A DNA stretch of 10,381 bases from a virus (Duplodnaviria; Heunggongvirae; Uroviricota; Caudoviricetes): positions 1 through 10,381 of IMG/VR virus record IMGVR_UViG_2531839265_000011. The stretch is one strand, 5' to 3'. Shown here piece by piece: positions 1-10,381 of this stretch. The notes below the pieces were generated by a model. It was not told the origin of the DNA. It was given only the letters and a program-made list of their open reading frames with translations, and did not search any database. Each line of letters opens with the position of its first letter. Within the stretch, counting starts at the first letter, position 1. Both the position numbers and the translations under genes were made by a program.

Positions 1-573
1 TTAGCAAATACCAAATGCTCGAATAGAACTCAAATCATCTAGGTTATTCAGTTCTTCCTTCATCTCCCGCTGACGCCGATAAATCTCATCGTTGCGATCG
101 ACCTGAGCCTGCGCCATTGCAGTAAGCAGCTCATCCAGTTTCTGCATCGACAGTTTCACCTGCTGGTTTTCCGCATCGCCCCATACCATGGTTTTTCGCG
201 CTGTGTCAGACTTTGATGCCATTACTGCCGGATAAAGACGAGCCATTGAGTCGGGGCCAGCGTTCCAGGTGCGACCGTTCCATTCGAACGTGAACGGCAG
301 TGCCTCCTGTTCTGTGCGCCATGCCTCGATTTCCCGCTTTTTGGCATCCTTCGCCGCGGCGATAAGTTCCGGCGTGACGGTGAACGGGGCGATTTCACCC
401 CATTTGCCGCTCTGCAACTCTTCCCAGATGCGTTGGCCTGTCGGGGCGGTATCATCTTGCATGGCGGTATACGGGACGAATTCCCTTTCACCTTCAAATA
501 ACACCTCGCAGTCAACCGCACCATTTTCGAGATAATGGGCGTTTCTGATGCCCTTTACCGCTCTGATTTTCAT
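1..573 (-). CDS. putative tail fibre assembly/chaperone-like protein paired with the second side tail fibre
   Basis: 190-aa ORF; ATG at 573-571 with AAGGAG 7 nt upstream; starts 14 nt after the TAA of the 654-aa fibre gene, the canonical position of a fibre chaperone; stop TAA at 3-1. Lacks the canonical Tfa C-terminal WP..P motif seen in the other Tfa (8518..9069), so the call is mainly positional. Confidence 0.5.
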   Translation of the reverse strand: MKIRAVKGIRNAHYLENGAVDCEVLFEGEREFVPYTAMQDDTAPTGQRIWEELQSGKWGEIAPFTVTPELIAAAKDAKKREIEAWRTEQEALPFTFEWNGRTWNAGPDSMARLYPAVMASKSDTARKTMVWGDAENQQVKLSMQKLDELLTAMAQAQVDRNDEIYRRQREMKEELNNLDDLSSIRAFGIC

Positions 574-587
574 GTTCTATCTCCTTG

Positions 588-2552
588 TTACTCAATGCGC
601 ACGAACAAACAGATAAAGCCTCTGTCGCCATACGTTCCACGATAACCTGACAGGGCCTGATAACGACCGGGAAAACTGAATGCACCAGCACCCCCCGCCT
701 TTACTGAAGGTGTGGAAACATATGTCCCGGAATTATTAATTGCACAGTCGATAGCCACAGGACCAAGTCGCGACCCCGCCACTACATCCCCAAGGCCAAT
801 TTTTATTTCCTTATCTCCTGCCGCTGTTCCCTGATAGACCGCGAGAATAAGAGAGCCAACTGCCGGATATTTGTAATATGAGGACGGGCCGTTGCCCGCC
901 GTCCGGGACAGCAGGAAGGCCAGCGAATCGCTGTCGTAAATGACGGGGCTTACTGTTGCATTCCAGTTATTTTCACTCCAGCGATAAGTCAGGCGATGAA
1001 TACTATGTTCGCCTTCGTAATACTGGTTAAAACACAGCAGCATTTTGAATTTGCGCGTTGTGTCTGATTCATCGTTATCAAAGGGCGACCACATCACATC
1101 AATAATGCCGTTAAATTTTGTGGTGCCAATCAGTAGCGAGGAAGAGTCCACAATACTGACCGCATAACGCCCCGGCGTGGCCTCTTTCAGCCATTCAGCA
1201 AAATCGGCCTGCCCGTTAAATGCCAGGGCTTCGGTGCTGGTAAATGCCTGACCGAATCCGTACATGCCGGACAGTGCCAGTCTGCCTGGTGTGCGGTCGC
1301 GGATATCGCTCTGGGGTTCCATCGTCGCAGCCGCTTTCAGTTCAAGCTCCGTGCGCATGGCCTCAGACGTGTCCAGCGCCAGTAATGCGCGGGCTTTTTC
1401 TGACAGCTGCGCCAGTAAAATCCGGCCCTCTGCACTGAAATAAGGCAGTGTGTTTTCTTCCGGTGTTATCTGGCTGACAGCCGTTAACACGTCATTAAGC
1501 GGCTGTTTACCTGCCAGTGCTTTAGTGACGGTTGTCGCAAAGTTCGGGTCATTACCCAGCGCCGCTGCCAGCTCGTTCAGCGTGTCGAGGGCTTCCGGTG
1601 ATGAGTCAACCAGCGCGGCGAGCAGTTTGCGGACAAATGCCGCGTTCGCGGTTTCCAGACCGACTGCATCGTCCGGTGGGGTTGGTGTGGTTGGCGTACC
1701 CGTGAACGCCGGGCTGTCCAGCGGCGCTTTTGTTTTCGTCTCGTCCATGACGGCTTTGACAGCCTTTGGTGTGGCGGCCAGTTCTTCGCTGTCGTTGTCT
1801 GTATCACTACAGAGTTGCACCAGGCCTTTTTGCGTCGTGCTGGCGCTGGTTCCTTTCAGGTCATCGACTATCCGTTGCGCCTCGTCCCTGTGCTGTTTCG
1901 CGTTCTGCTCGCTTTTTGCTGCTGCTTCGGCGCTGGCCTTTGCCTCGCCGGTCAGCGTTGCGGCTTCACCGAGTTTATCGACCGCTTTCTGGACTATCGT
2001 GTCAGCATCTTTGACCGCCTGTTCTGCGCGGGCCGCATCCTGTGTGGCAGATGACGCCAGTAACGCCACCTGCTTTTTGTCTTCGGCAACGGCTTCTGCG
2101 TTCTGCTGTACGTTATCCGCCAGCGTCTCGCAGTCGCTTTTAATTTGTTGCGCATCAGCGACATGTTTCCCGGCCTGTCGTTCGCTTTCCGCTGCCGCTT
2201 CCGCGCTCTGCTGCGCCTGCGCCACCATTTCCTCAAAGCGTTTCACTACATCCGGCTTTAAATCGCCTTCATCAAGGGCGGTCAGAAAGTCGTTCAGTGT
2301 GCCGGGCTTTGAATCGTCGTAAACCGAAATATCACCAACACAATATTCTCTTTCAATACATGACCGGAGATAAACGTCATATCTTCCGGTCTGGGCCTCA
2401 AATGCATATTCTCCTGCCGCCCCTGTCACTACTGTTGCCACCGTTCTCATGACCACTGCGGATGTATTCTGTCGGGCTTTCAGAATAATATGGTATCCGG
2501 ACATGGGGAGTCCCGTGCCATCCGTCAGCACACCCGAAATTAATACAGACAT
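588..2552 (-). CDS. side tail fibre protein, mosaic (Stf-type N-terminal domain, Ala-rich coiled coil, P2-H/Stf-type shaft motifs, distinct C-terminal domain)
   Basis: 654-aa ORF; ATG 2552-2550 with AGGA about 7 nt upstream. N-terminus MSVLISGVLTDGTG...ILKARQNTS...PGTLNDFL resembles the N-terminal domain of lambdoid prophage side tail fibres as I recall it; long Ala/Gln/Glu-rich coiled-coil region; central KGLVQL...ELAATPKAVKAVMDETKTKAPLDSPAFTGTPTTPTP...ALVDSSPEALDTLNELAAALGNDPNFATT block typical of P2 H / Stf fibres. Confidence 0.85.
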   Translation of the reverse strand: MSVLISGVLTDGTGLPMSGYHIILKARQNTSAVVMRTVATVVTGAAGEYAFEAQTGRYDVYLRSCIEREYCVGDISVYDDSKPGTLNDFLTALDEGDLKPDVVKRFEEMVAQAQQSAEAAAESERQAGKHVADAQQIKSDCETLADNVQQNAEAVAEDKKQVALLASSATQDAARAEQAVKDADTIVQKAVDKLGEAATLTGEAKASAEAAAKSEQNAKQHRDEAQRIVDDLKGTSASTTQKGLVQLCSDTDNDSEELAATPKAVKAVMDETKTKAPLDSPAFTGTPTTPTPPDDAVGLETANAAFVRKLLAALVDSSPEALDTLNELAAALGNDPNFATTVTKALAGKQPLNDVLTAVSQITPEENTLPYFSAEGRILLAQLSEKARALLALDTSEAMRTELELKAAATMEPQSDIRDRTPGRLALSGMYGFGQAFTSTEALAFNGQADFAEWLKEATPGRYAVSIVDSSSLLIGTTKFNGIIDVMWSPFDNDESDTTRKFKMLLCFNQYYEGEHSIHRLTYRWSENNWNATVSPVIYDSDSLAFLLSRTAGNGPSSYYKYPAVGSLILAVYQGTAAGDKEIKIGLGDVVAGSRLGPVAIDCAINNSGTYVSTPSVKAGGAGAFSFPGRYQALSGYRGTYGDRGFICLFVRIE

Positions 2553-4343: not shown

Positions 4344-5994
4344 CCCCAGAATGCATCGCCATCGGTCATGCGGGAACGCTGACCAAAATGAATATCTCCC
4401 AGATTTTTCGTTACCCTGTCAGCCAGTTGTCCGGCATCCTCGCCAGGCTTCTGAGTGATGTTAAATTCCGCCCGTATCTGATATGTGGGTTTTACTTCCA
4501 CCTGGCTGACACTGCCGGGGGTATACTGAAGAGCCGAGAGAGGATCCGAATTACCCTGCCCCTGAACTGCTGCAGGAAGTCCGTCAATATAGGTGCGGGA
4601 TTTCTCTTTTATCGCCTTAAAATCAGGTTCTTCTTTCGGCCCCAGCAGAGGGTCGAGAAATGCATCAAACTTTTTATCGTCATGATTCCAGGGGAGATAA
4701 CCGCGGGTGTCTTTATAGGCCTGTACAACCTGTTTTGTCAGGTCAGGATTTTGCCTGAGCAGTTCATCAAACCATTCACCCTGACCGTTTTTCTGCGCCA
4801 CTGCTCTCGCCAGCTCCGGCGACCCCATTTTTGCCAGATACTCCAGCACTTCCCGTCGGTCCTCTCGCGGATCATCCGCCAGCCCCCACTCAATGGCTTT
4901 TTGTGTAATTCCGGCAAGAACTTTTCCAAATTTCCACATCCAGGCAGCCATGTCGATCAGCGCCGGCAGGGCATCATCACGAATAAATGCCCGGATTTTT
5001 TTCCAGCCCACCATTCTTAAACCAGGCCGCAAGGTCATCCGTCACCTGTTGAATATGTGGGGCAAGTTCATTACCCAGCTGTCCGCTGATTTCATCAATG
5101 GAAGAACTCAGAACATTACGGAGATTTGACAGTGCCACATGTCCCTGAACTGCGCCATCAGCCCCTGCCTTTGTCACCAGGTTATAGCGTTTCTGCTCAC
5201 TGATAAGCTCCCGGTAAGTTTTCCCTGACAGACGCATCCAGGTCAGAATTTTATTGGCCTCACCACCGAACAACGCATCTGCCATTCCGGCAGCCACCTG
5301 TTCATTCTCCACCTGCAGTAAGCGATCAAATAAAAATTCGACCTGCTCCTGGTTGCTTTTCCCTGTCATCACCCCGGCTTTCAGTCCCAGTTTGCCAAAG
5401 ACCTCCTGAATGGCCCCTTTATCCGTGGCACCATTATCATCGTCAAAAACCTTGTTCCGGTACTCCTCAAACAGATCACCGATGTTTTCACCGTTCAGCC
5501 CCATCAGTCGGGCCAGAGAATCCCATGACGCATAGGTTTCATAATCCACCCCATAACTGCGGGCTATCCCTGCCCGCTCTGCCGTCTCCGTATTCCGGTT
5601 AAGCACAGCGGCAGTGCCCGCTGCCAGCGTCAACCCGGAACCAACCGAAAGCCCAAAACCGGTTTTAAGGACCGTCCCCGCCCGCCCTTTCCAGCGTTCC
5701 AGGCGTTCCGCGCGCGCCAGTTTACGGTTAAATTTGTCCTGCTCTCCGGTGGCATCATGAATTTTTTTACCCAGCTTTTCATACTGCTTTCGCAGATCAG
5801 TAATATCCTGTCCAGCCAGTACGCCAGCCTGAATTTTTCGTTTCAGTACGTCCTGCTGGCGTGTCAGGCGAGCCACTTCCTGTGTTGCCCCTGATAATCC
5901 GTGCTTCAGTCCATCAACCGATTTTTTTCCACGACGGATCTATCGTGCCTCCGATCCGGATATTCGCTTTAAGGTTATCGCCCACCGTTGCCAT
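4340..5994 (-). CDS. tail tape measure protein, reading frame interrupted twice at A7 runs (frameshifted gene or homopolymer sequencing error)
   Basis: Position directly after the E/E' chaperone; strong RBS (AGAGGAAG, 9-nt spacer) before ATG 5994-5992; three consecutive open segments (5994-5917, 5939-4980, 5041-4343) in different frames joined by single-nt shifts at A7 runs 5922-5928 and 4996-5002; Gly/Ala-rich hydrophobic stretch GFGLSVGSGLTLAAGTAAV typical of tape measure proteins; conceptual product about 548 aa. Confidence 0.6.
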
Positions 5995-6420
5995 AACGTT
6001 GCTTCCTCTCTTCCGACTCCGCCAGCATCATTGCCACAAAATCCGTATACGGCAGCGCCATCACATCTCCGGGAGACCACCCGAACCAGGCACCGGCACG
6101 CCGTATCGCTGTCAGGATGCTTTCTTCTTCCGCCGGACCGGCGGCAGCAAAAAAACATTAAACTGACGCTCCAGGGCCAGGTAATCACACGCTTCCATGT
6201 TCATCATGTCTGCCGCGTCCATCCCACACAGACCGGCAATCATATCCAGATCAGCCTCTGCTTCCGGTTTGTTACTCCGGCGATGCAACAGACGATCGCG
6301 GACAGTGGGCGCACGCATAGTGACGTGCGTGATCGTCTGTCCTGATGCGGTGACATACGGCACGGATAACACAATTTCCACGCTGCTGGCAGGAACGCTG
6401 TTTTTTTCCGACATAAGCAT
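5975..6420 (-). CDS. tail assembly chaperone E+E' fusion produced by programmed -1 ribosomal frameshift
   Basis: After a -1 slip at T_TTT_TTG (6154-6148) the -1 frame stays open for 57 codons (FFAAAGPAEEESILTAIRRAGAWFGWSPGDVMALPYTDFVAMMLAESEERKQRYGNGGR) to TAA 5977-5975, ending just inside the start of the tape measure gene; this is the standard E/E' (G/GT-type) arrangement. Confidence 0.6.
6112..6420 (-). CDS. tail assembly chaperone, gpE-like
   Basis: 102-aa ORF between tube and tape measure; AAGGAG at 6426-6421; first ATG at 6420-6418 is too close to the SD, so ATG 6414-6412 (6-nt spacer) is the likelier start; contains the T_TTT_TTG slippery heptamer 12 codons before its stop, as in P2 E. 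Confidence 0.75.
   Translation of the reverse strand: MLMSEKNSVPASSVEIVLSVPYVTASGQTITHVTMRAPTVRDRLLHRRSNKPEAEADLDMIAGLCGMDAADMMNMEACDYLALERQFNVFLLPPVRRKKKAS
6148..6154 (-). other. -1 programmed ribosomal frameshift slippery heptamer T_TTT_TTG
   Basis: Minus-strand sequence GTT TTT TTG in the E frame; heptamer X_XXY_YYZ with X=T, Y=T, Z=G, identical in form to the P2 E/E' site. Confidence 0.6.
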
Positions 6421-6427
6421 CTCCTTT

Positions 6428-6455
6428 AAAAAAGAAAAGGCGGCCTGAGCCGCCT
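6428..6455 (-). terminator. intrinsic (rho-independent) terminator between tube and chaperone E genes
   Basis: On the minus strand: AGGCGGC-TCAG-GCCGCCT (perfect 7-bp GC-rich stem, 4-nt loop; 6455-6438) followed by TTTCTTTTTT (6437-6428), then the RBS of E. Lies 19 nt after the tube stop. Confidence 0.6.
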
Positions 6456-6473: not shown

Positions 6474-6968
6474 TTAAACCCGGATGATTTTTTTCAGATC
6501 CGCCAGAACATTAACGCCATTAATACGACGTACAAACTCCTCCGGAATAATGCAGATGGTTTCCACACCGTCGACAGCCTGGCGGTAATAACTCAGCGAC
6601 ATTTCCACCGTCACCGAGGCGTCTGCCTGCGATGTTGCCGGACGTGCATCCGGCGTGATACTGGTGATCATCCCCTGCAGGGTTTCCACCTGTCCGCTGG
6701 TCGCATTCCCCACCTGATAGCCCTGGCGGACAACAATCTCCGGCGAATAAAGCCCGGCCTGTAATCCCAGCAGCGTCAGCATGGCAACATCATAGCCATA
6801 AATCTTAAACGAACAGGTCAGCGCTTCCATGCCGTCATCCACTGCCACCGGTGCATCCATTGCGCCGGTTTTGATATCCACTGTCGTGATATTAATGGCT
6901 GGCGGCGTGTATTCATGCGCCCCCTGAAGGCGGATCCCGCCAGGAAGAAATAACGCCCATGCGCGCAA
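6474..6968 (-). CDS. tail tube protein (FII-like)
   Basis: 164-aa ORF directly after the sheath gene; C-terminal MSLSYYRQAVDGVETICIIPEEFVRRINGVNVLADL resembles the conserved C-terminal region of P2-type tube proteins as I recall them. The in-frame ORF has no ATG (only TTG at 6968-6966); a strongly RBS-backed ATG at 6991-6989 lies in another frame (see findings). Confidence 0.75.
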   Translation of the reverse strand: MRAWALFLPGGIRLQGAHEYTPPAINITTVDIKTGAMDAPVAVDDGMEALTCSFKIYGYDVAMLTLLGLQAGLYSPEIVVRQGYQVGNATSGQVETLQGMITSITPDARPATSQADASVTVEMSLSYYRQAVDGVETICIIPEEFVRRINGVNVLADLKKIIRV

Positions 6969-6987
6969 CAGTTTTTTTCACCCGTCA

Positions 6988-8463
6988 TCATACTGTCAGT
7001 TCCTCCAGCGCCAGTTTATTGTTAATCATTGCCCGCAGTGTCAGGCGCTCCAGTGGTGACTTCGGCCCAAAGTCATAATCAATATACAACTGCCCTGCCG
7101 CCAGGGTTTCTGCAGTGTTCAGTTCATCGTTCAGCCATGCACTGCCACCGTGGATCGCGCCCAGATTTTTAAGCTGACGCATATAGGCATTAATGCTGCC
7201 AAGAATGTCGTCTGCCACATCCCGATCAAGCGGGCGATCGACATAAGGCAGCATGGCCTCCTGGATGCTGTCCTCAATCACATCTGCAGTGCGGCGTACC
7301 GGCTCAAAACGCCACTGACTGTGGGATGTGCACAGACGGTTACCCCAGTGTTTAAAACCGTCATGGCGAATAATGGTGGAGATATTTTCCATGTTCAGCA
7401 GGTTTGCCGTGCAGTTCTGCTCCCCGAGAATAAACGTATCCACCTGCTCCAGACCGGTGATATTCATCACGTCCTGGTTTGATTTGGACCACCACCACCC
7501 TTTTTCGTAATCAATACGGGCACGCAGCCCGGCAGCACGAGCCGAATATGGACGAAATATCGTTTGCCCGCTGTCATCCGTCACTGACACGCGCGGACGC
7601 AGCAGCTCCACACGCCCACCAAATGACGCGCGCCGCTGAACCACATCCTGCGGTGTTGCCATTGAGGGCGAGTCAATATAGGCCACAGCCCGCAGCTTCG
7701 CGGCATACGTTTCCAGCGCCTTTGCCACGCCATCATCCTCACTGTACCCCGTGGCGATGAGGATGCGCGGTTGATAGCCTGTCACGCCCTTACTTTCTGT
7801 CAGCGCCTCCATGGCCTGAATCACCGCCGCACGCTGTTCGGCCTCTTTCGCCTTTGTTTTACTTTCTGCGCGCACCACAATCACCAGCGCCCCAGTCTGG
7901 TCAAAAATATCTCGCAGGGCCGGGTATAATGTTCCGGCTGTGCCCAGTTTCCCGGCCTGAGTAATGGCCCCTGCCACCACCACTGGTGTATTGACCGGGA
8001 ACGCCTCATCTTCTCCGCCGGATAACGTCAGGCTGAACGGCAACACCACTTTATTTTCAGCGTCTCCTGCATTCAGGGTGCTGACAGCCGCCGTCACAGG
8101 CGAATCCCCCAGCGCATTCACCACTTCAGTCACACGGTCCGCCGTGGCGTTAACCTGGCTGTGTTCGTCCGTCCCCAGTGTTATCGTCAGGGTCGTACCT
8201 TTCAGCGAGGCCACTGTCTGCGCATTTTGTTCTGTGGCAGCCACAGCAACAACCGAAATCTTATTACCGGCCCGACCTTCCTGTTTCGCCGTGAAATCCA
8301 GCGCCGTTCCCAGCAGCCAGGAGCCGGCTGTGCCGGAAGCGCACACACCACCAGAGGCGTCCGGCGCTGTCCCCACCAGGCCAATCACTGCCGTGGAGAT
8401 GGTCTGCACGGCAACCGTGCCTGTCGTCAGTTCAATGGTTTCAACACCATGTAATCCGGACAT
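6988..8463 (-). CDS. tail sheath protein (FI-like)
   Basis: 491-aa ORF; ATG 8463-8461 with GGGAGA 5 nt upstream; N-terminus MSGLHGVETIELTTGTVAVQTISTAVIGLVGTAPDA, central PRILIATGYSEDDGVAKALETYAAKLRAVAYI, GWWWSKSNQ, IRHDGFKHWGNR and C-terminal AETLAAGQLYIDYDFGPKSPLERLTLRAMI blocks match the conserved segments of P2 FI-type sheath proteins from memory. Confidence 0.9.
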   Translation of the reverse strand: MSGLHGVETIELTTGTVAVQTISTAVIGLVGTAPDASGGVCASGTAGSWLLGTALDFTAKQEGRAGNKISVVAVAATEQNAQTVASLKGTTLTITLGTDEHSQVNATADRVTEVVNALGDSPVTAAVSTLNAGDAENKVVLPFSLTLSGGEDEAFPVNTPVVVAGAITQAGKLGTAGTLYPALRDIFDQTGALVIVVRAESKTKAKEAEQRAAVIQAMEALTESKGVTGYQPRILIATGYSEDDGVAKALETYAAKLRAVAYIDSPSMATPQDVVQRRASFGGRVELLRPRVSVTDDSGQTIFRPYSARAAGLRARIDYEKGWWWSKSNQDVMNITGLEQVDTFILGEQNCTANLLNMENISTIIRHDGFKHWGNRLCTSHSQWRFEPVRRTADVIEDSIQEAMLPYVDRPLDRDVADDILGSINAYMRQLKNLGAIHGGSAWLNDELNTAETLAAGQLYIDYDFGPKSPLERLTLRAMINNKLALEELTV

Positions 8464-8476
8464 ACATTTCTCCCAT

Positions 8477-8498
8477 AAAAAAACCGCCCTCAGGCGGT
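8477..8498 (-). terminator. intrinsic (rho-independent) terminator between Tfa and sheath genes
   Basis: On the minus strand: ACCGCC-TGAG-GGCGGT (6-bp stem, 4-nt loop; 8498-8483) followed by TTTTTT (8482-8477); 20 nt after the Tfa stop and 13 nt before the sheath ATG. Confidence 0.65.
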
Positions 8499-8517
8499 CA
8501 GATGATTAACTTCTTTT

Positions 8518-9069
8518 TCAGGTATTTTGTGGCTGCTCAGGCCAGCTAATATTGTTGTATGTGGTCTTATCCGTAATAGCGCTGAAATCCATCGCCTGCA
8601 GCGATTTCGCGTAAATGCGGTACGCTTTCAGCTTCTCCCTGTCTTCGTCACTGATTAATCCCGGCAGCAGGTCTTTTTCCCATTCGCTGGTCATGATGCT
8701 GACCTGTTTTAACAGAGCATCGCGCTCATCTTCCGCTTTAAGTTTGTAGTCGAAGACAAATTTATCGTCGCGGTAAAACCAGTAACCAGGCACGGTTATA
8801 CGGCGATTAGCGGTAATATCAGGAACTTCAATAACACTGGCGTTACGGGGTTCAATGCCTGTCACATCCTTACCGACCCACACCACGCGCCCGTCTCCGG
8901 TGTAAACCATTTTTATGGTGTCACTGGCAAAATTCTTCTGTTCTTCATACCAGTTTTTGTCATCTTCCGAAAAAAGCCAGGTGATACCATGTTGTTTTGT
9001 CATCTGATATTGTTCTGCGGTTTTCGGATTGCCCGCAGTAATATTTTTAAATGCAACATTGTTAAACAC
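8518..9069 (-). CDS. tail fibre assembly protein (Tfa, gpG-like)
   Basis: 183-aa ORF starting (GTG 9069-9067) 8 nt inside the end of the upstream fibre gene; C-terminus ...TTYNNISWPEQPQNT carries the W-P-x-x-P ending characteristic of Tfa chaperones; position immediately downstream of a fibre gene. Confidence 0.8.
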   Translation of the reverse strand: MFNNVAFKNITAGNPKTAEQYQMTKQHGITWLFSEDDKNWYEEQKNFASDTIKMVYTGDGRVVWVGKDVTGIEPRNASVIEVPDITANRRITVPGYWFYRDDKFVFDYKLKAEDERDALLKQVSIMTSEWEKDLLPGLISDEDREKLKAYRIYAKSLQAMDFSAITDKTTYNNISWPEQPQNT

Positions 9070-10381
9070 TCGCCACGTTATACCAGGTGCCGTTAATCAG
9101 TTTCTGAAGCGGACGGTAATACACGCCGCCGATGTTATCTGCCGAATTACTTCCGGTTTCCTGCACATTAATACCGGATAACCCGTGGCCTGAAGGTGAG
9201 CGAAATGTCCAGGATACCTGGTTACCTCCCGGGTTGTAATACATTTCGGAACCATAACGCACATCCTGTACGCCGCCATTTCGCTGCTGATAACGGGCAT
9301 CGAAATTTCCATAGTTTGATGGGGTCATCTGTCCGTTTACAGCGAATGTGATACTGCCATCGGTATTTCTCTGGCTGTAAAAATGCCAGCCGGAATCATC
9401 ACCAAGCTCTGCAACTACAGGTCGGGATGAATTACCCCATAAATTAAACGTTGCGTTTTTCGTCGAGTTGTTGGCGCTGGATAACGTGAATTTTTTAGCA
9501 TTTCCGGCCTGAATATTTTTTAACGCTATCGCCACACCATTCTGGAAACGAAATACATGCTGTCCATTCGCATAAACATCCAGAATGCCGTCGCCGTTTT
9601 GTTTTATACCTGTATCGTTATCCCCGAAAGCAATTGAGTTTCCGCCCAGCGCGTTCTGAACGCCGATACCCAGCGCACCATTGACCTGAGAACCGCCGCC
9701 AACAGACACTTTATGCGACATAGATATTTCACCCGTCCGCAGATTAATAGTGAACGGGCGAAGTGGACCAATATCGCCATTTTCACCTTGGTTTTCCTGT
9801 GTTGGAATAAGGTGCAGGCACTCTTCCGAACGACGAAAAATCAGCCCAAAGGCTTCGTTGAAAATCCTCAGCGCATTAACACCACGGATTTTCAGTTCCC
9901 CGGTCATGGTGTCACCATCACGCTGAACGGCATTTTTTGCCTTGTCCACCGTGGGTTTTAATCCGAGGTTTTCAACAGCCTCATCCTTGTCTTCCACATC
10001 CGAAAGATTCTTTTTTCGTTGCAGATAGCGTCTGTCTCCGATTTCCTGAGTAATAATGGCCCTGTCCGGATCAACTTCCAGCACCACGTTTTGTGCGTGC
10101 GTCAGCCCAAGAACCAGCGTCAGAATAACTTCCTTGATAACGGAGTCCGTCTGGTCTGGTAAAAAGGTGTCGGGATAACGTCCGTACGCGATAAGCGTAC
10201 CTCTGTCGCTGATCATCCCCAGTTCACGAAGGGTTTTACCGGGGTATGATTTACAGTCAATCACAATATCCCCGCTGATGAAGCCCTCCTCCACCGCACC
10301 GTCGGAAAAGGGTTCCTGCCCGAATTCGCCGTACAACGATGTCATTGCTGCCATTTCATCCGGCGTGGATGGCAATGCCCG
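9062..10381 (-). CDS. tail fibre protein, P2 gpH-like (5' end truncated by window edge)
   Basis: Open to the window edge (no stop between 10375 and 10381; the listed M is a TTG, so the true start is probably upstream). N-terminal region (TLRELGMISDRGTLIAYG...) resembles the P2 H baseplate-attachment region; DGDTMTGEL collar motif; C-terminal region (NALGGNSIAFGDNDTGIKQNGDGILDVYANGQHVFRFQNGVAIALKNIQAG...VVAELGDDSGWHFYSQRNTDGSITFAVNGQM...LINGTWYNVASV) matches the conserved distal domain shared by P2 H / Mu S-type fibres as I recall them. Confidence 0.85.
   Translation of the reverse strand, partial: RALPSTPDEMAAMTSLYGEFGQEPFSDGAVEEGFISGDIVIDCKSYPGKTLRELGMISDRGTLIAYGRYPDTFLPDQTDSVIKEVILTLVLGLTHAQNVVLEVDPDRAIITQEIGDRRYLQRKKNLSDVEDKDEAVENLGLKPTVDKAKNAVQRDGDTMTGELKIRGVNALRIFNEAFGLIFRRSEECLHLIPTQENQGENGDIGPLRPFTINLRTGEISMSHKVSVGGGSQVNGALGIGVQNALGGNSIAFGDNDTGIKQNGDGILDVYANGQHVFRFQNGVAIALKNIQAGNAKKFTLSSANNSTKNATFNLWGNSSRPVVAELGDDSGWHFYSQRNTDGSITFAVNGQMTPSNYGNFDARYQQRNGGVQDVRYGSEMYYNPGGNQVSWTFRSPSGHGLSGINVQETGSNSADNIGGVYYRPLQKLINGTWYNVASV

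Follow-up and report, generated by a model that had tools for sequence, protein, structure and literature searches.

A conserved intrinsic-terminator motif in the leader of the tail sheath gene of lambdoid prophages with P2-type tails

Introduction

How is a tail sheath gene transcribed when a well-formed terminator motif stands directly in front of it and leaves no space for a promoter of its own? The question is raised by the junction between the tail fibre assembly gene (Tfa) and the tail sheath gene in the viral DNA studied here, of which we analysed a stretch of 10,381 nt (hereafter the window). Sheath is the most abundant protein of the tail, and a terminator at this position appears paradoxical. 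The original prediction, made from the letters of the window, took the hairpin to close a fibre/Tfa transcription unit and left two ways of expressing sheath: a promoter inside or upstream of Tfa, or read-through.

Here we describe the hairpin and its conservation, the gene with which it is associated, its counterpart behind the tube gene, and the regulatory context of related prophages. We then weigh the possible functions of the element and compare it with known systems.

Gene content of the window

The minus strand carries every real gene of the window (Table 1). In the order of transcription, the genes that follow the tail assembly chaperone are those for the tape measure protein, gpU, X, gpD and a second fibre, so that two fibre/assembly gene sets are present in the tail module. 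Collinearity with a prophage locus of E. coli SC407 (L001) extends over 8.5 kb at 95.3% identity; in the middle of the second fibre, the window is diverged from L001 or unaligned with it. The Tfa body is 82-95% identical to Tfa of numerous other E. coli prophages, among them one in DH5alpha. The Tfa gene and the 3' region of the fibre gene also match PP818812.1 ('Actinobacillus phage vB_Apl-pPE4') with 95% nucleotide identity over 745 bp, which is unexpected for a Pasteurellaceae phage and may reflect module exchange or a mis-assigned host.

Table 1. Coordinates of genes and RNA elements of the tail module
Feature	Coordinates	Strand	Basis or remark
Tail fibre	10375-9062	-	
Tfa gene	8518-9069	-	PF02413; called GTG 9069 start distorted by homopolymer indel at 9044
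Tfa stop (...ACC TGA)	8520-8518	-	Sequence reading
Spacer from Tfa stop to hairpin, AAAAGAAGTTAATCATCT, 18 nt	8500-8517	-	Sequence reading
Predicted terminator hairpin GACCGCC-UGAG-GGCGGUU, 7 bp, tetraloop	8482-8499	-	Fold of -10.8 kcal/mol
U7 tract of predicted terminator	8477-8483	-	First two U able to pair with stem base
Shine-Dalgarno (SD) GGGAG of sheath gene	8470-8474	-	6 nt 5' of ATG, 2 nt 3' of U tract (+A U)
Sheath start ATG	8463	-	Sequence reading
Tail sheath gene, 491 aa	6988-8463	-	PF04984, PF17482, PF22671; 58-100% identical in ~85 loci
Tail tube gene	6474-6991	-	PF04985, L001 annotation; frame broken at ~codon 7 by homopolymer difference at 6972
Post-tube hairpin AGGCGGC-UCAG-GCCGCCU	6438-6455	-	-14.3 kcal/mol; directly 3' of tube gene
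Post-tube T tract UUUCUUUUUU	6428-6437	-	Followed by SD and ATG of tail assembly chaperone
Tail assembly chaperone gene (gpE-like)	6112-6420	-	PF10109; first gene after post-tube terminator
Second fibre, lambda Stf-like	588-2552	-	PF08400 N-terminal domain and PF03406 repeat
ORF after second fibre	1-573	-	Aligns with L001 gene annotated as DUF4376 domain protein

Four single-base differences in A/T homopolymers set the window apart from nearly all of its close relatives: T7 where 22/22 relatives have T6 (position 4996), T7 where 19/19 have T6 (5922), T7 where 28/29 have T8 (6972) and T5 where 10/10 have T6 (9044). Each of them shifts the frame of a tail gene, namely the tape measure gene (twice), the tube gene near codon 7 and the Tfa gene near codon 5, and they are the cause of the split tape-measure ORFs and of the called starts of tube (TTG 6968) and Tfa (GTG 9069). 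These frameshifts are either sequencing errors or the marks of a decaying prophage copy. The pre-sheath terminator motif is unaffected by them.

The hairpin and U tract before the sheath gene

From the Tfa stop codon to the sheath start codon, the minus strand reads TGA-AAAAGAAGTTAATCATCT-GACCGCC-TGAG-GGCGGTT-TTTTT-A-TGGGAG-AAATGT-ATG. The gap measures 54 nt, with 18 nt between the Tfa stop and the hairpin and 13 nt between the last T and the sheath ATG. The original prediction, with a gap of 54 bp, a distance of 13 nt and an element at 8477-8498, was essentially right on the sequence; its GC hairpin is also present, and the accompanying tract, described there as T6, is in fact T7 (8483-8477). 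The 7 stem pairs comprise five G-C, one A-U and one G-U, and the hairpin has a free energy of -10.8/-10.9 kcal/mol. Intrinsic terminators are recognized by a GC-rich stem-loop of ∼5-12 bp with a short loop and by a U-rich tract directly 3' of the stem and co-directional with the genes, and the pre-sheath element has both features.

The element is unidirectional, since the plus strand has no T run 3' of the hairpin; a bidirectional terminator or a role on the plus strand, which also lacks genes, is ruled out. As had been claimed, the 13 nt between terminator and sheath, part of which is taken up by the SD, offer no room for a promoter. An apparent promoter that overlaps the hairpin (CTGACC-N15-TTTTAT) was discarded, as its start would fall at or past the SD. 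A scan of the whole window against Rfam 15 at the gathering threshold returned zero RNA-family matches. We regard the pre-sheath element as a conserved, bona fide terminator motif, at which transcription would be expected to terminate.

The frequency with which such a motif arises by chance was estimated by a strict terminator scan (stem of at least 6 bp with at least 5 GC, loop of 3-6, and at least 5 T among the next 6). The scan found exactly two sites in the window, 8499-8482 and 6455-6438, both on the coding strand and flanking the sheath-tube pair. Across 300 dinucleotide shuffles, a window averaged 0.017 sites and none contained two or more. A lax scan listed 19 terminator-like sites (10.6 expected), and the 71-nt context around the hairpin folds with ordinary stability (z-score -0.06), a measure that is uninformative for a short local hairpin and is superseded by the strict motif scan against shuffles. 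Because of this uninformative z-score, the case for a terminator is built on the local motif itself, on its location between genes and on its conservation. A functionless hairpin that happens to lie beside a T run would agree with the many lax sites and with the unremarkable context fold, but the strict expectation is only 0.017 per window and the element occurs with compensatory substitutions in every relative scored; conservation and covariation effectively refute a chance origin, to which we attach practically no probability.

Conservation and covariation of the pre-sheath hairpin

Related loci were gathered via the sheath protein and comprise 7 loci from genome contigs, 78 from IMG/VR, which supplies most of the locus diversity, and Hafnia phage yong2. 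The proposal of a canonical intrinsic-terminator motif between Tfa and sheath is borne out by this comparison, with the 7-bp hairpin and its U tract found in 77/77 related loci scored (sheath identity 58-100%). In all loci with sequence 5' of the sheath gene, the hairpin is followed by a T tract that ends 13-21 nt from the ATG and adjoins GGAG, and GGAG is kept at the SD position in all relatives.

Alignment of the 23 distinct leaders reveals five stem cores (CCGCC, CCCGC, CCTGC, CCAGC and CTCGC), each with a matching 3' arm. In these leaders 100% of the cells are paired and compensatory changes occur at 3/7 pairs, one of which shows four pair types (UA, GC, CG and AU). In control registers slid by 1-3 columns, only 29-65% of the cells are paired, and the number of double-change cells is 0-1 as compared with 18 in the true register. 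The loops vary freely (UGAG, UUAAG, UCCG, UGCG, UUCG and others) and the stability of the stem is held at -8.9 to -12.4 kcal/mol. Of the 23 leaders, 21 have a T7 tract, one has T9 and one T6. The T7 of the window is likewise T7 in 32/32 close relatives, an agreement that matters because the window carries homopolymer-length anomalies elsewhere. The pattern is the signature of a selected RNA hairpin with a U tract, i.e. of a predicted intrinsic terminator.

Association of the element with the sheath gene

The gene upstream of the element differs between lineages. In the E. coli group (sheath identity 89-100%, 28 loci) it is Tfa, whose stop codon lies 16-18 nt before the stem. In the groups with 58-63% identity, the upstream stop codon (TAA or TGA) lies within the 5' arm in 48 loci, at a distance of -2 nt, and 12 nt away in one. 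The upstream gene was identified by Pfam as gpV (PF04717) in yong2 and in one further locus (L004), and a gpV-type C-terminal sequence recurs across the 58-63% loci. The hairpin-SD-ATG block is conserved, while the sequence 5' of the hairpin is unrelated between the lineages with Tfa and those with gpV.

Homology breakpoints fall in the same region. Nucleotide homology between the window and yong2 spans the sheath gene and ends at 8485, inside the hairpin. Among E. coli genomes, matches to the Tfa of other prophages end at 8554, and matches that keep the sheath gene with a different Tfa start at 8532, which places a mosaic breakpoint at 8532-8554, in the last ∼12 codons of Tfa. Based on these breakpoints and on the differing upstream genes (Tfa or gpV), the gap and the hairpin are assigned to the sheath-side block. 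The comparison indicates that the pre-sheath terminator travels with the sheath gene and not with Tfa, the fibre/Tfa cassette being the exchangeable part. The view that the hairpin 'ends' a fibre/Tfa unit is not upheld, since the element follows the sheath 5' end whichever of the two genes is upstream and the homology to yong2 stops inside it.

The lineages also differ in gene order. In the lineage of the window, V-W-J-I-H-G is followed by the block from sheath to D; in the lineages of yong2 and Citrobacter, V is followed by sheath-tube-E-T-U-X-D and then by W-J-I-H-G. The Citrobacter phage Chris1 encodes a sheath homologue of 61.5% identity. This is a permutation within one phage family, and its breakpoint coincides with the pre-sheath hairpin. 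No cargo gene was found at the junction in ∼80 related loci or in the listed E. coli genomes, and the absence of cargo in the window, as originally reported, extends to all of these.

A second terminator after the tube gene

The other site of the strict scan reads AGGCGGC-TCAG-GCCGCCT-TTTCTTTTTT (minus strand, 6455-6438) and follows the tube gene. It is conserved in the same loci as the pre-sheath element, with the stem versions GGCGGC/GCCGCC, GGCAGC/GCTGCC, ACGGCC/GGCCGT and GCGACC/GGTCGC, and the sheath-tube pair is thus bracketed by two conserved terminator motifs. More distant phages vary in this respect. Vibrio phage Valp1 (46% sheath identity) has both terminators, the pre-sheath one ∼30 nt from the ATG. 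In Stutzerimonas phage ZRG1 (38%), 110 nt separate a hairpin from sheath, and a post-tube terminator is present too. Neither hairpin was found in Escherichia phage vB_EcoM-705R4 (47% sheath identity) or in a Sedimenticola prophage (39%). In P2, a hairpin lies 3' of FII and has no T tract.

Similar elements occur elsewhere in these operons. Both L001 and yong2 have coding-strand terminators that follow the capsid gene and stand on either side of sheath-tube; further ones lie ahead of the lysis genes in L001 and at the end of the operon in yong2. The post-tube terminator of yong2 is plainly visible and was not listed by the automated consensus scan, most likely as greedy stem extension consumed the T run. 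In both lineages a canonical terminator lies 3' of the major capsid gene, and in L001 an 11-bp hairpin lacking a T tract lies on its 5' side as well (elements at L001 27120-27138 and 28195-28219, minus strand, and at 6496-6518 of the yong2 locus L003). The arrangement points to flanking hairpins as a general feature of high-copy structural genes in such late operons.

Regulatory context: Q and the late operon

The L001 prophage sits by ompW/trp and has a lambdoid layout, with repressor-region genes (cI-type), replication genes, RusA, Q, tRNAs, holins and endolysin, terminase, a lambda-type head and a P2-type tail. All genes from Q through the tail fibres are on one strand. In the close lambdoid relatives, the co-directional late genes extend over ∼30 kb and contain several terminators of this kind. 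The Q protein of the L001 prophage (profile match on locus L089) belongs to PF03589 (E 2.5e-51); PF03589-type Q also matches a DnaJ-type zinc-finger domain. The Q of yong2 belongs to an unrelated family (PF06323, E 6e-48), with the same overall gene order and a homologous tail module. Valp1 and 705R4 also encode Q-like proteins. That the presence of the element tracks the presence of Q is ruled out by 705R4, which has Q and lacks the hairpins.

Within 120 nt of the Q stop codon (L089, 14675-14790), Q is followed by a putative PR'-like promoter (TTGATT-N16-TAAATT) and then by two hairpin/T-tract terminators, a context taken from relatives ∼95-97% identical to the 10.4-kb window, which itself contains neither Q nor PR'. 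The presumptive tR' hairpins have free energies of -8.5 and -10.6 kcal/mol, and the pre-sheath hairpin is equally stable.

Internal promoters appear to play no part. Promoter-like sites are not enriched relative to shuffles (6 observed and 8.2 in shuffles for the window; 7 observed and 16.4 in shuffles for L001). A search for sigma-70 promoters in and around Tfa gave best matches of 9/12 without the invariant final T of the -10 hexamer, none of which is credible. No Ogr-type site (TGT-N12-ACA, which in a P2-type junction lies ∼55 nt upstream of the transcription start) is present between 8464 and 9100, the nearest being at 8228-8245 (in sheath) and 9561-9578 (in the fibre gene), and no Ogr/Delta-type activator is annotated in the relatives, which carry Q. 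The late genes are co-directional and such promoters are unneeded in a Q operon; because Q heads a single co-directional late gene array, a promoter internal to the tail genes for sheath is unnecessary. The phage is not P2-regulated: its close relatives are lambdoid, with the Q antiterminator at the head of this array. Of the two routes originally offered for sheath expression, read-through is favoured, and the promoter in or upstream of Tfa is both undetectable and superfluous with Q.

Proposed mechanism

The element is probably a terminator within the sheath 5' leader, inside a long Q-controlled late operon, which Q-modified polymerase bypasses. The lambdoid context removes the paradox of a good terminator before the most abundant tail protein without promoter room. 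We infer the following course of events, from termination itself to Q-dependent read-through, an effect of ribosomes and any role in mRNA stability.

When polymerase unmodified by Q reaches the pre-sheath site, the hairpin would form over the U7 tract and the RNA would be released. Such polymerase could stem from leak-through at tR' in the lysogen or from spurious initiation within upstream genes, and its stopping would prevent expression of sheath, tube and the tail genes further downstream. In the lytic phase, Q-loaded polymerase would start from the PR'-like promoter with an exit channel that bars terminator hairpins, and would pass the pre-sheath site and likewise the similar sites after the capsid and tube genes. 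Q forms a nozzle on the polymerase exit channel that precludes pause and terminator hairpins and remains engaged over tens of thousands of nucleotides (PMC9388147), and the Q21-like antiterminator BrrG bypasses even an unrelated synthetic terminator (bioRxiv 10.1101/2024.11.20.624540). After read-through, sheath would be translated from its own SD, and a promoter of its own would not be needed.

A closely trailing ribosome is expected to weaken the terminator further on translated transcripts, because the stop codon is near (18 nt here, and overlapping the stem in the gpV-type relatives). In vivo, ribosomes suppress a terminator almost completely when it lies a few bp past a stop codon; efficiency ranges from 0.12 to 0.8 at 17-18 bp and becomes full beyond ∼27-30 bp (PMC4824070). 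The 18-nt distance between the Tfa stop and the hairpin lies in the range of partial ribosome repression reported there. Once read through, the folded hairpins would probably serve as barriers to decay and divide the polycistronic mRNA into segments.

As the Q-regulated 705R4 shows, a late operon can work without the element, whose benefit would therefore be accessory. Plausible benefits include control of leakage in the lysogen, insulation from the frequently exchanged fibre cassette and partition of mRNA stability. A point against Q-dependent bypass is that, with incomplete antitermination by Q, a terminator ahead of the gene for the most abundant tail protein would be a handicap.

Alternative explanations

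If the locus worked in the manner of P2, the hairpin would close a separate fibre/Tfa unit, and sheath and tube would be transcribed from an activator-dependent promoter in or upstream of Tfa. The G/FI junction of P2 does follow this logic, with a terminator, an Ogr site and then pF, and the tail genes here are P2-type by Pfam. However, a promoter upstream must still transcribe through the terminator, and no suitable promoter or activator site accompanies it, with TGT-N12-ACA missing near the Tfa 3' end and the final -10 T missing from the best sigma-70 match in Tfa (9/12). The relatives carry Q, with no Ogr/Delta-type activator annotated, and it is the hairpin-SD-ATG block that is conserved between lineages with unrelated sequence 5' of it. 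We consider P2-style control of this junction very improbable. The hairpin could instead act on the RNA, as a decay barrier or 5' stabiliser, and the U7 tract could raise sheath translation by serving as a ribosomal protein S1 or standby site; in combination, this element and the post-tube hairpin would yield a long-lived sheath-tube mRNA fitting the high copy number of the products. Two conserved hairpins do bracket sheath-tube, the L001 major capsid gene also lies between a hairpin and a terminator, the element adjoins the SD in all lineages (the strict U7 next to the SD could be a sign of a translational role instead), and the P2 hairpin after FII, which has no U tract, suggests a stability role in P2. 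Yet the same layout of hairpin, U tract and SD precedes the low-abundance chaperone gene and is not a specific mark of high expression, and a strict U7 directly 3' of a GC stem is a termination signature that would be superfluous in a decay barrier. A stem of only 7 bp is too short for RNase III, by which processing of the pre-sheath hairpin is ruled out, and a hairpin 5' of sheath would shield the upstream mRNA from 3' exonucleases and not the sheath mRNA. A device acting purely at the RNA level is therefore, in our estimate, unlikely.

Translation could also gate the terminator independently of Q: a ribosome finishing the upstream gene would occlude the 5' arm, and only untranslated or uncoupled transcripts would be stopped. 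All of the stop-to-hairpin distances (-2, 12 and 16-18 nt) are indeed below the ∼27-30 nt needed for full activity (PMC4824070), but genome compaction could explain short distances, and at the 18 nt of the window's lineage the measured repression ranges from strong to slight, too variable for a dependable supply of the most abundant tail protein. Read-through is already accounted for by the Q context, and gating by translation without Q seems quite improbable. A broader idea, which we put forward tentatively and think rather unlikely, would extend bypass by Q-modified polymerase: hairpin, U7, SD, sheath, tube and second hairpin would make up a conserved, gated cassette that is mobile, passing as one unit through changes of gene order. 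Expression of the contractile tail would then require both Q-modified polymerase and translation of the gene upstream, whose stop codon lies inside or near the stem, and the sheath-tube mRNA would be separately stabilised after read-through. If true, such a cassette would be an undescribed layer of stoichiometry and leak control within the Q-dependent operons of lambdoid myoviruses. Short of that, the distribution of these elements offers a modest, testable comparative observation on the way in which long antiterminated operons of phages divide up expression.

Comparison with known systems

The tail module resembles that of P2 in its gene order (fibre, Tfa, sheath, tube, E, T, U, X, D), in a rho-independent terminator after the fibre-assembly gene and in a hairpin after the tube gene. 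The resemblance does not extend to the junction itself. The G/fun(Z)/FI junction of P2 is 2.4 kb long and contains the V-operon terminator, a lysogenic-conversion gene, an Ogr binding site and the promoter pF, with a transcription start 26 nt before FI, whereas the junction of the window is 54 nt long and has no activator site and no promoter. The sheath proteins share ∼35% identity over the C-terminal 78%, and P2 is regulated by the Ogr activator, unlike the close relatives of the window with their Q antiterminator. With neither an activator site nor promoter space, the pre-sheath element is not a P2 pF-type junction. The statement that this junction carries Z/fun in P2 is true of P2; as a homologous site from which cargo was lost it does not hold, and the analogy is only a distant one. 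For annotation, it follows that P2-like tail genes need not mean P2-like regulation, and that terminator predictions inside such prophages are unsuitable for splitting operons.

A closer parallel is found in the lambdoid late operons (the Q proteins of lambda, 21 and 82 with PR'/tR'), which correspond in the relatives to Q, a promoter-like site, hairpin terminators and then a long co-directional lysis/head/tail array. Unlike the tR' sites of these phages, the pre-sheath site lies ∼20 kb into the operon and is joined to a P2-type sheath leader, and its dependence on Q would follow from the context of relatives. Tn916 and the Bartonella BaGTA with BrrG provide a further likeness, in that a terminator silences the genes of the element until a processive antiterminator is made (PMC11658703; bioRxiv 10.1101/2024.11.20.624540). 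The antiterminator families and the types of element differ, and those cases are supported by experiment, whereas the pre-sheath case is a prediction from sequence.

A literature search gave no paper that describes a terminator ahead of sheath in Q-regulated phages, nor one on yong2. The nearest likenesses are yong2 and Valp1 themselves, both with Q-type antiterminators, a hairpin and T tract before the sheath SD and a second one after tube; yong2 differs in having gpV as the upstream gene, with its stop codon inside the stem. Most likely, the element acts like the internal terminators of any processively antiterminated operon, which is ordinary biology of low novelty; what is mildly new is a terminator pair that is kept with sheath-tube across a permutation of gene order, within ribosome range of the upstream stop codon.
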